Of a stretch of 52,817 bases of DNA, positions 30,548-39,108 are shown piece after piece (position 1 is the first letter of the stretch; every line of letters starts with the position of its first letter). A program made the translations under genes and the position numbers. The notes beneath the pieces were generated by a model that did no database searches, was not told the origin of the DNA, and saw only the letters and a list, made by a program, of their open reading frames with translations. This stretch comes from Halieaceae bacterium (GTDB lineage Bacteria; Pseudomonadota; Gammaproteobacteria; Pseudomonadales; Halieaceae), in assembly GCA_018666295.1 (NCBI GenBank), contig JABIZW010000161.1, forward strand, positions 1-52,817, given 5' to 3'.

Positions 30548-30660
30548 AAAAGGCTCCTGTAACTCACATTCAGAAGCGGGAGACTGCAAAGAGGTGGCGT
30601 ACTCGAGTGGCATCGGGCACTGACCCTCTGCTGGTGCCCACCGCGCCATTGGGTTTTTTT

Positions 30661-30780
30661 AGGCAGGTATCGGGCTCGGACCACGCGTGACACGTTGTCT
30701 GTACCGTTGCGGGGGCAGCGCTGGCTCATCCAGACTTCCCTTTTAACCTACCCGAGCGTTTCACACCTGTAGGCACCTAA
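30661..30780 (-). ncRNA. Cobalamin riboswitch aptamer (short form)
   Basis: Minus strand reads AGGTG...GGTTAAAAGGGAAGTCTGG...CCAGCGCTGCCCCCGCAACGGT...GAGCCCGATACCTGCCT, the conserved core and B12-box elements; lies upstream of btuB. Confidence 0.9.
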
Positions 30781-30787
30781 GGGGCGG

Positions 30788-30816
30788 ACGGTACGCGCTT
30801 GTTGCCAGCGAGTCAA
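30788..30816 (-). promoter_or_regulatory. Putative sigma70 promoter of the riboswitch-btuB operon
   Basis: Minus strand TTGACT (30816-30811), 17-bp spacer, TACCGT (30793-30788); implied start near 30781 matches the aptamer 5' end. Confidence 0.65.
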
Positions 30817-34108: not shown

Positions 34109-34269
34109 ACATTTGTTGCTTTGCTTACCACCTAAGGTCAGACGAGATGTCGACTGCTGGTGTTTATACACTATCTGGCTGAACTGATCTTCCCCTGTAC
34201 ACGTCTCTTCTGAGAGTCTGGTGACCCCTGAAAAAGGGCTATTGATTCATCAGACCAAGGAGGGTCTAT

Positions 34270-34533
34270 ATGAGACGTTTGAGCACCACTGCACTGGTAA
34301 CGCTGTCACTTTGCTTGTCACTACCGGCTGCGGCATTACCCCGAGACGCCCTGATTAACAACACGCTATCACTGCCGGGCGAACTGAAAAAATCTGTTTT
34401 GTTAGAGCACGAGTTAGCTGACGTTAGAGGGGCGGTATGGCCTCTGATTTTTGGTATCGCGACGGTCGACTTGGCACTTCAGGCCTATTACTTTGGGGTT
34501 TATATCCCAAAGACGCGAGGTGGTCGCGGTTAG
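34270..34533 (+). CDS. Secreted peptide precursor: Sec signal + double-glycine-type leader + 32-aa hydrophobic core
   Basis: SD AAGGAGG at 34257-63; signal MRR-hydrophobic-PAAA (residues 1-22); L44/E48/L49/V52/G54-A55 fall at leader positions -12/-8/-7/-4/-2/-1; C39 peptidase two genes downstream. Confidence 0.75.
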   Translation: MRRLSTTALVTLSLCLSLPAAALPRDALINNTLSLPGELKKSVLLEHELADVRGAVWPLIFGIATVDLALQAYYFGVYIPKTRGGRG

Positions 34534-34552
34534 CGCCCAAACTCATTCCAAC

Positions 34553-34578
34553 GAGCCGTCGTACCGGCGGCTTTATTT
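34553..34578 (+). terminator. Intra-operon hairpin / weak terminator after the precursor gene
   Basis: AGCCGTCG-TAC-CGGCGGCT (one G-U pair) followed by TTATTT. Confidence 0.55.
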
Positions 34579-34590
34579 GAGGGAGCATCC

Positions 34591-34830
34591 ATGGCCACTT
34601 CGAAACAGAGGTTAGCTCAAAAATTTGCCGTATTCGCGGTTGAGCACAAGCGACGACAAATCTTCTGGTCGACGATGACACAACCGACCATCACCTGGGT
34701 GGCATTAGGATTGACCTACTCGACCCTGACTAGCGATGGTACGGCTCAAAACGCTTGGTTCGCAGGGATGTTCGCGCTATACGGCGCGCAGATTGCCTAC
34801 GCTTGGTACTTGTCAGAGACGACTAAGTGA
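34591..34830 (+). CDS. Small two-TM membrane protein (putative immunity/partner protein)
   Basis: SD GGGAG; basic N-terminus then two hydrophobic stretches; GTGA overlap with the C39 gene. Confidence 0.65.
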   Translation: MATSKQRLAQKFAVFAVEHKRRQIFWSTMTQPTITWVALGLTYSTLTSDGTAQNAWFAGMFALYGAQIAYAWYLSETTK

Positions 34831-35342
34831 ACGTTCCTGTGTGGATCGTCGTGCTAGTAATTTTATGGGTCACGCCGCTGGCCAATGCTTCGAACGATAT
34901 GCATTCAAATCACATTGCTCTAGTAAAACAGACGTCACCTTTTAATTGCGGGCTTGCAGCGCTTGCGATGCTGTTGTCGGCCGGTACGCCCAAGCCGGTC
35001 ACACTGACTTCGCTCTCGGGTCTTGCAATCACACTGATAGCGCCTGCGTCTCAAGAGTACCGAGATCGTGGATTTTCGGTGAGTGAATTGCAGCGATTAG
35101 CCGCTGCATACGGTCAGGCGCTTACAGCGCGATGGATGACGACCGACACGCTGCTAACTGCCTCGTTTCCCCTCATTGCGTGGGTGCAGCTCGATGACCT
35201 TGGACATTTCACTGTCGTTGAAGGAATTGACCGCGGTCATGTTTCAGTCGCAGACCCTACTCGCGGCTATCTTTCGCTGGATCTTGACGATTGGCAGAGT
35301 ATTTGGCTCCAGGGCAATCAAGGGATTGCCCTGGAGCTTTGA
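34827..35342 (+). CDS. Stand-alone C39 family cysteine peptidase with signal peptide
   Basis: Q35-x5-C41 ('KQTSPFNCGLAALAMLL'), H127 ('GHFTVV'), D143 ('VADPTRG'), 'GFSVSEL'; hydrophobic N-terminus ending in ANA; no ABC TMD or NBD. Confidence 0.9.
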   Translation: MNVPVWIVVLVILWVTPLANASNDMHSNHIALVKQTSPFNCGLAALAMLLSAGTPKPVTLTSLSGLAITLIAPASQEYRDRGFSVSELQRLAAAYGQALTARWMTTDTLLTASFPLIAWVQLDDLGHFTVVEGIDRGHVSVADPTRGYLSLDLDDWQSIWLQGNQGIALEL

Positions 35343-38310: not shown

Positions 38311-39108
38311 CTATGGTTTCTTGCCGGACCGTTCTACCGGTTTAATCCGGTAGAGATAAGGCCATCGTTTACCGCTTAACCAGATTCCCTTGTTACGGGG
38401 ATCAAAAGCAATGCCGTTGAGTACATCGGTACCTGGCTGGCGTTCGCCTGCGGGTAATAAGTGCGAGACGTCAATGATACTGCTGATTTGCCCTGAGGTG
38501 GGATCGATTCGCACAATCTGATCAGTGAGCCATACATTTGCCCAGATTTCCCCATTGATCCATTCAAGCTCGTTGAGTCGGGAAATAGGCTTTCCGTTAA
38601 GCGTGACCTTGATTGTTTTGACTTGCTTGCTGTCCTGCCATACGGACAACTGAGCTGTTCCGTTGGAGACATAAAGCTGTTCACCATCGCTGGTGACGCC
38701 CCATCCCTCCCCAGGCAATGGGATTGTCGAGATAATGGACAGATCTTGAGGGTCTATAACGAGCATCTTTTGCGATCGCCACGTCAGTAGATACAGCTGT
38801 CCTCCTAACTCGGCCAAGCCCTCTGCAAACCATTTGCTAGGAAGATTCTTACGGCTGCGATTAGTCATGGAGGGCCAGTCCGATCGTGCGATAAACGACT
38901 CGCCGTAGAGACCCGAGCTGACCCACAAGGCATCATTCCAAATTAAGAGACCCTGCGTGAAATTTTCGCGATTAATGGCGCGTTTCTCGACGACCTCATA
39001 GTCAAAGACCTGAATCTCGTCTGCGATCAGGTCTGACGACAGCCCAGGCACCATGAGTAAAAGTGTTAGCGCTATTTTTAAGCCCGGGTTCAGGCAGGGA
39101 GTGTTCAT
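38311..39108 (-). CDS. Glutaminyl-peptide cyclotransferase (beta-propeller type), exported
   Basis: 'FTQGL', 'FAEGL', 'LTWRS', 'GEGWG', 'LNELE', 'WANVW', 'VLNGIA', 'GKRWP'; N-terminal signal-like segment. Confidence 0.92.
   Translation of the reverse strand: MNTPCLNPGLKIALTLLLMVPGLSSDLIADEIQVFDYEVVEKRAINRENFTQGLLIWNDALWVSSGLYGESFIARSDWPSMTNRSRKNLPSKWFAEGLAELGGQLYLLTWRSQKMLVIDPQDLSIISTIPLPGEGWGVTSDGEQLYVSNGTAQLSVWQDSKQVKTIKVTLNGKPISRLNELEWINGEIWANVWLTDQIVRIDPTSGQISSIIDVSHLLPAGERQPGTDVLNGIAFDPRNKGIWLSGKRWPYLYRIKPVERSGKKP

Follow-up and report, generated by a model that had tools for sequence, protein, structure and literature searches.

A Leader-Bearing Precursor and a Stand-Alone C39 Peptidase in Halieaceae: A Putative Reduced Form of a Four-Gene Secretion Module

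Gene Organization of the Cassette

The window considered here is a stretch of 52,817 nucleotides (contig JABIZW010000161.1 of assembly GCA_018666295.1) from a Halieaceae bacterium. It contains three consecutive genes, for a peptide precursor (ORF1), a small membrane partner (ORF2), and a stand-alone C39 peptidase (ORF3), which lie exactly where an earlier note on this DNA had placed them, with the same lengths (Table 1). The stop codon of ORF2 and the start codon of ORF3 overlap in the sequence GTGA. Comparison with two close genomes gave dN/dS values of 0.13–0.18 for ORF1, 0.21–0.38 for ORF2, and 0.17–0.22 for ORF3, and two neighbouring genes gave 0.08–0.12 in the same comparison. All three cassette genes are real and under purifying selection. 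The named close homologues of ORF1 belong to Luminiphilus and the related loci to Halieaceae records; the host genus is very likely Luminiphilus.

Table 1. Features of the cassette (positions in the window)
Feature	Position	Strand	Basis
Hairpin with 5-bp stem and Shine-Dalgarno GGA in a 6-nt loop; likely CsrA/RsmA-type site	34252..34267	+	Comparison of upstream regions
ORF1, precursor (87 aa)	34270..34533	+	ORF list and sequence
ORF1, predicted Sec signal peptide (residues 1–22)	34270..34335	+	Sequence; n/h/c heuristic
ORF1, pro-region (residues 23–55) ending in the C39-type leader L44-x3-E48-L49-x2-V52-R53-G54-A55	34336..34434	+	Table of 60 distinct leaders; alignments
ORF1, predicted mature core (residues 56–87), hydrophobic helix	34435..34533	+	62-sequence alignment; AlphaFold2
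G+C hairpin between ORF1 and ORF2 with a T-rich run behind it; may act as an attenuator lowering ORF2/ORF3 relative to the precursor	34553..34573	+	
ORF2, small membrane partner (79 aa)	34591..34830	+	L-x-x-K N-terminal helix, then two hydrophobic segments; homologue comparison
ORF3, stand-alone C39 peptidase (171 aa) with predicted signal peptide	34827..35342	+	PF03412; homologue of NapP, FapD, and FilB

A family scan of the 43 longest non-overlapping ORFs of the window bore out the earlier observation that no PCAT, HlyD, TolC, RiPP-modifying, or mobile-element family lies near the cassette. The remainder of the window consists of housekeeping genes, and only 3 of the 40 ORFs in the main family scan were without any family. 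The G+C content at the cassette is 0.508, against 0.50–0.57 in ten surrounding bins. The gene for PreP adjoins the cassette in 52 of 68 loci, a count that, like all locus counts given here, comes from kin and not from independent observations. A glutamine cyclotransferase gene (window positions 38311–39108, minus strand) is near the cassette in 46 of the 68 loci, and in the clade of the window the residue at −1 of the leader is often Gln or Glu, so that a cut after the preceding Gly would expose an N-terminus able to form pyroglutamate; this proximity is probably synteny only. A cobalamin riboswitch lies at 30645–30795 (minus strand), upstream of genes for a TonB-dependent receptor and cobA/btuR, and Rfam gave no match at the cassette itself. 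In metatranscriptome contigs from four runs, coverage of the cassette was thin and too little to rank its genes.

Leader and Core of the Precursor

The N-terminus of the precursor resembles a Sec signal peptide throughout the family, as a simple n/h/c heuristic was satisfied by 68 of 69 precursors. Behind this segment, the double-glycine-type register described for the window is present: L44 (−12), E48 (−8), L49 (−7), V52 (−4), G54 (−2), and A55 (−1). Among 60 distinct leaders, position −12 is L/V/M/I in 57, −8 is Glu in 36, −7 is L/A/M/I/V in all 60, and −4 is T/L/V/A/S in 56. The Gly at −2 is invariant in an independent 68-sequence alignment. The canonical leader rule, according to the available text of PMC10885120, is GG, GA, or GS together with hydrophobic residues at −4, −7, and −12. 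The earlier proposal of G-G/A as the cleavage motif does not extend to the family: the residue at −1 in 70 loci is Arg (30), Gly (16), Lys (12), Glu (6), Gln (4), Ala (1), or Thr (1), giving Gly or Ala in just 17, and the −2 Gly alone is fixed. Because −1 varies in this way, the motif of the family is G-X, within which the GA of the window is an exceptional case. Either these C39 enzymes have a wider S1 pocket or the cut may fall one residue earlier.

The predicted core contains five residues (D67, L70, G76, Y78, and P80) that are invariant in an alignment of 62 sequences. Its small residues cluster on one face, with 173 of 5000 shuffled sequences reaching the observed moment, and no amphipathic moment was detected (3438 of 5000 shuffles). 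The net charge of the core is zero or negative in 61 of 70 family members; the peptide of the window has +2. AlphaFold2 predicted a single helix running through leader and core, with a pLDDT of 88–96 for the core and a pTM of 0.39. A core of this kind would suit helix–helix association in a membrane more than the role of a cationic antimicrobial peptide. A PDB sequence search with the precursor profile returned only matches of E ≥ 1.3, and the ESM Atlas only unnamed clusters; hits to PsbJ were taken as chance hydrophobic matches. No longer, fused form of the precursor was found among 7997 candidates of 185–2000 aa, which is weak evidence against such forms. One 244-aa protein, P0125, reads as a partial barrel fused to leader and core and is possibly a frameshift artefact.

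The Peptidase and Its Membrane Partner

ORF3 matches the C39 family (PF03412, E 7.7e-15), and its catalytic residues Q35, C41, H127, and D143 are present as first described. The linkage of precursor and peptidase is also conserved, with 67 of 70 precursors directly followed by a C39 gene and the other three loci cut off by a contig edge. Of these 67 C39 genes, 55 encode the full Gln/Cys/His/Asp set, 7 are without the Gln, 2 are truncated, 1 has no detectable Asp, and 2 (L079 and L086) have Cys-Ala, which was missed by the Cys-Gly pattern. One clade (L073, L074, L076, L080, L082, L084, and L085) is without both the oxyanion Gln and ORF2 and keeps the conserved precursor. In a test for an N-terminal hydrophobic stretch, 59 of the 67 peptidases passed, and so did 627 of 2000 control windows. 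By this heuristic the N-termini of the family's peptidases are signal-like; the predicted signal of the window's copy is without a basic n-region.

Maturation by a different protease was considered as well. The window's genome (G000, 94% complete) gave one match to PF03412, and the stand-alone enzyme was the sole C39 enzyme found in the single-contig genome G012. In four of five relatives, a second C39 match is an ABC protein without a Q-x5-CG motif in the N-termini listed. Processing by a PCAT encoded elsewhere, which would have spoken against the proposed route, is unlikely because the additional C39 domains belong to these motif-less ABC proteins and G012 has only the stand-alone enzyme. 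G012 also contains a further C39-like match (C1:2211442-2211837), which is broken and has two stop codons.

ORF2 had been read as a two-helix membrane protein, a description that is clearer in the homologues than in the weakly hydrophobic copy of the window, where the 19-residue Kyte-Doolittle average reaches 0.87 among the positions listed. This copy fell below the hydrophobicity filter, yet was matched by the ORF2 profile. Eleven of the 67 loci, from two clades, have no ORF2 beside an intact precursor, and the single-contig genome G004 gave no credible match (best E 0.014, partial). No Pfam family was common to more than 7 of 55 ORF2 members.

The Absent Barrel Gene

In the loci of Haliea, Parahaliea, Sediminihaliea, Pseudohaliea, and Halioglobus, the precursor is preceded by a gene of about 285 aa. 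A model of this Halieaceae protein (pLDDT 86) had FapF as its best PDB match (E 3e-12, TM 0.69), and its sequence matches a Neisseria gonorrhoeae gene with an E of 5e-12 over 93%. The latter is a full-length paralogue of the NapF sequence that PMC11798529 gives in its S1 Fig, and an ORF with a signal peptide and a leader comes after it. The barrel profile matched 3 of 96 genomes of the genus, closely tracks the precursor in other genera, and found nothing in G000 (best E 2.2 in a genome 94% complete). A weak match to PF13557 in G000 (C66:3385-3894, L137; E 0.002, below the cut-off) lies in a 380-aa frame that also occurs in G015 and is possibly an unrelated outer-membrane barrel. When the CxxC tail and the barrel were scored together, 14 loci had both, 4 had the barrel only, 45 had neither, none had the tail only, and 7 were not scorable.

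The same architecture is found outside the family. A Vibrio plasmid has the four genes in the same order, with the CxxC tail, and two Acinetobacter plasmids carry a barrel, precursors, and C39. With a leader-only profile, 4 Acinetobacter precursors were in the top 6 of 285 ORFs at non-significant E-values; the Neisseria and Vibrio precursors were not among the best 14 of the 285, and their match to the register was read by eye. By these comparisons the cassette is not a new architecture: it derives by reduction from a module of four genes, for a FapF/NapF-like barrel, a precursor, a membrane partner, and a C39 peptidase, and most of the genus has lost the barrel. The earlier statement that there is no exporter is therefore true of this lineage, but not of the apparent ancestral module, whose FapF-like barrel other Halieaceae keep.

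Relationship to Known Systems

The earlier note had mentioned, with reservation, similar ORFs near C39 genes in Neisseria, and such look-alikes exist: a signal-plus-leader ORF occurs there behind a full-length NapF paralogue. The nap island (NapF, NapP, NapA-C, NapI, and NapH; PMC11798529) shares with the cassette a signal-bearing stand-alone C39 peptidase, the signal of the latter being assigned by heuristic. ORF3 is 26% identical to the NapP ORF (E 1e-10), and NapP was the best-ranked match of a Halieaceae C39 protein in the plasmid collection (E 4e-23). In the available text of PMC11798529, cleavage by NapP in the periplasm is only proposed, and the Naps are active against the producer, though not against the tested competitors, so that both a periplasmic route and a self-directed activity have a counterpart there. 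The S1 Fig of the same paper gives a signal peptide for NapF and NapP and none for NapA-C. NapA-C are cationic, and the island that carries them is acquired and low in GC, whereas the Halieaceae precursor is single, mostly neutral or anionic, and vertically inherited; the nap island also has the NapF barrel, of which none was found in G000. In the gonococcal island (L132:1743-5555), NapA and NapC read like small membrane partners; in a paralogous locus (L123:4992-6440), a complete barrel gene precedes a signal-plus-leader ORF whose C-terminal domain is long. This class of signal-plus-leader ORF may be the true NapP substrate.

The Fap system of Pseudomonas (FapD and FapF; PMC5557850) likewise combines Sec export with a periplasmic C39 enzyme, and the barrel of the Halieaceae relatives has the FapF fold. 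FapD is periplasmic and requires its Cys, and its target is described as unclear in the accessible part of that paper (PMC5557850), whereas the cassette has a leader-bearing candidate substrate adjacent to the enzyme. Fap has amyloid-repeat subunits, in contrast to the cassette, which is without them and has a predicted helix as its core and no detected barrel; ORF3 scores 38.9 bits against the FapD model, whose cut-off is 330. Fap-like operons with C39 are present in genomes of the same order (L014 and L016). FilB of the Acinetobacter Fil system is a stand-alone C39 protein of the same clan (NF050078, E 1.9e-9), but ORF3 scores 37.3 bits against a cut-off of 475, and the cassette contains no further fibre genes.

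The PCAT double-glycine systems (class II microcins, ComC/ComA, and LahT) have in common with the cassette the hydrophobic −12/−7/−4 register and the −2 Gly. Their leaders are N-terminal, whereas in the cassette family a signal-like segment comes first in 68 of 69 homologues and the leader follows it. They have GG, GA, or GS at −2/−1, in contrast to the Arg, Lys, Glu, or Gln at −1 in most of the cassette family, the window having GA. They also encode a PCAT with an active C39 domain, and none was seen at the cassette locus or in G000. Class II microcins have a cognate immunity gene, a role that ORF2 fits by size and position, but ORF2 is absent in 11 of 67 loci. The cassette fails membership of the nap island proper and of the Fap, Fil, and PCAT-microcin systems, and works like the two-step export and maturation of Fap and Nap. 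The accessible part of a survey of polymorphic toxins (PMC3482391) contained nothing on this module. In a search of titles and the beginnings of abstracts, which took in little of the subscription literature, no description of the Halieaceae cassette family or of its barrel-less form was found.

Distribution and Inheritance

A census by leader and core profile covered 96 genomes of the genus, 36 of them of high quality. The precursor is present in 77 of the 96 and in 34 of the 36, nearly always as a single copy, and in about 77/192 to 79/196 genomes of the family, in 11 of 37 genera. Among 400 sampled other genomes of the class it was not found save for one weak partial match, and none of 51 pattern matches in viral contigs was a relative.

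Over 51 loci, the C39 and PreP trees have 19 of 23 supported splits in common, with 2 in conflict, and the precursor and PreP trees have 10 of 18 in common, with 4 in conflict. On average over these 51 loci, identity amounts to 0.60 in the core, 0.63 in PreP, and 0.33 in C39; the mean for ORF2 is 0.28 (40 loci, in an alignment that leaves out the ORF2 of L083). The core is about as conserved as its housekeeping neighbour PreP and follows the PreP tree. Such a pattern marks a gene set passed on by inheritance rather than a toxin undergoing diversification.

Translational Control

The hairpin in front of the precursor recurs in the family: the Shine-Dalgarno GGA is in the loop of a stem of at least 4 bp in 29 of 61 distinct precursor upstream regions, with many different stem sequences. 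The same test was positive for 32 of 456 control genes from the same genomes, 7 of 120 genes from the same loci, and 1 of 45 ORF2 starts. ACARGGA, the centre of the CsrA SELEX consensus RUACARGGAUGU reported in short hairpins (available text of PMC7652899), occurs in 19 of the 61 precursor regions versus 13 of 456 controls; the site of the window has the hairpin and is without the exact ACARGGA. Because the hairpin is enriched, ACARGGA is in excess, and csrA is present in the genome, repression of precursor translation by Csr is likely. About 35 nt ahead of the start of the precursor, at about 34221–34240 (plus strand), there is a second short hairpin, which is found again, with altered stems, in the clade of the window.

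Terminator-like matches in the region around the intergenic hairpin of Table 1 were no more frequent than expected by chance (2 versus 1.8). No sigma-70 promoter match was found at the cassette and no promoter motif common across clades; an ATTGTGC motif of one clade was set aside as a cassette promoter, as it probably belongs to the divergent neighbour.

Proposed Maturation Route and Function

The earlier proposal that Sec export and C39 maturation are uncoupled is supported by the precursor–peptidase linkage (67 of 70), by the signal-like N-termini, and by the FapD and NapP precedents, and a route of Sec export followed by periplasmic C39 trimming is quite probable. In such a route, the precursor would be exported by Sec and cut after G54-A55 in the periplasm. 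CsrA/RsmA would repress translation at the hairpin until relieved, probably under stationary or dense conditions. Signal peptidase I would then remove residues 1–22, and the pro-helix would hold the core inactive until the periplasmic C39 enzyme docks on the hydrophobic residues at −12, −7, and −4 and cuts after G-X. The residues G7/A10/A14/A17/G21 would form the face by which the released helix, once inserted in a membrane, self-associates, and the invariant Asp would be a polar, possibly ion- or pH-sensitive site; the dispensable ORF2 would likely temper or chaperone the peptide. Because no gene for a FapF-like channel was found in G000, the 32-residue helix would likely stay in the envelope of the producer and act on it. 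A self-directed function of the peptide is mildly favoured, and about even confidence is placed in the reading of the cassette as a domesticated derivative that has no channel and whose peptide probably works in the envelope of the producing cell. In this reading, a bacteriocin-type secretion module would have given rise to a domesticated membrane-active peptide directed at the producer itself, for Nap-like self-permeabilisation or for the control of lysis.

A more detailed version is put forward tentatively and is unlikely to hold in full: a bacteriocin-type module would have been domesticated in Halieaceae as a Csr-controlled, near-core gene set, Luminiphilus would have dropped the channel, and a C39 switch widened to G-X (Arg, Lys, Glu, or Gln) would release an Asp-gated, oligomerising peptide into the cell's own envelope for protease-triggered self-permeabilisation or programmed lysis in a marine lineage that is abundant.

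Several results stand against the proposed route and function. At −1, 53 of 70 loci have R/K/E/Q/T, outside GG/GA/GS, and the cut could fall one residue earlier; seven peptidases are without the oxyanion Gln; the homologous four-gene plasmid cassettes look like toxin–immunity units; a sub-cut-off PF13557 match (E 0.002) exists elsewhere in a genome that is 94% complete; and the site of the window is without the exact ACARGGA consensus.

The cassette forms a minimal pair of one enzyme and one putative substrate, which makes the question of what periplasmic stand-alone C39 enzymes cleave directly testable, together with whether such enzymes accept large or charged −1 residues. A peptide kept after loss of the channel in most of a widespread marine genus would show that a secretion module had been repurposed inside the envelope of its producer.

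Weighing of the Alternatives

One alternative is a microcin-like toxin with ORF2 as its immunity protein; the peptide would kill competitors after release in vesicles, through lysis, or via a channel not yet recognised. On the Vibrio and Acinetobacter plasmids, the gene order is the same and Gly-rich cores are each followed by a small ORF, and the rapid evolution of ORF2 (0.28 identity) also fits immunity. Class II microcins usually have hydrophobic cores that are neutral or anionic, which counts for a toxin as well. CsrA moreover represses a colicin lysis gene (accessible part of PMC2896534). Against this stand the single copy, vertical inheritance, and near-PreP conservation of the core, the lack of mobile context in the window, the failure to find a dedicated channel in most of the genus, and the 11 of 67 loci in which ORF2 is absent and the precursor intact. 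The classical microcin/immunity reading offered earlier is weakened by the vertical single-copy inheritance, the housekeeping-level conservation, and the loss of ORF2 in two clades, and is unlikely, although it ranks directly after the self-directed envelope peptide.

It is improbable that the peptide is a structural subunit, with processed helices assembling into a fibre on the surface or a coat on the membrane in the manner of Fap and Fil subunits. FapD and FilB are the closest enzyme models, the barrel is FapF-like, conservation of the core is strong and its small residues form a packing face (173 of 5000 shuffles), and a strong ribosome-binding site with a downstream hairpin could favour an excess of precursor; nevertheless, amyloid repeats are lacking, eight loci read gene by gene contain no accessory fibre genes, and the barrel, which a fibre at the surface would require, is lacking in most of the genus. 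Lower still, and quite improbable, is a pheromone with a receptor encoded elsewhere. GG-type leaders also mark pheromones such as ComC (available text of PMC10885120), and the likely Csr control ties the peptide to density or growth phase, but the cassette has no receptor gene, an exit channel was not found, and the core is very hydrophobic with little lineage-specific variation. That the cassette is a decaying relic of the four-gene module without current function ranks last and is very improbable: the CxxC tail, the barrel, ORF2, and the oxyanion Gln have been lost stepwise in parts of the genus, but all three genes have dN/dS values of 0.13–0.38, the precursor is kept in 34 of 36 high-quality genomes, and five core residues are invariant in 62 sequences.
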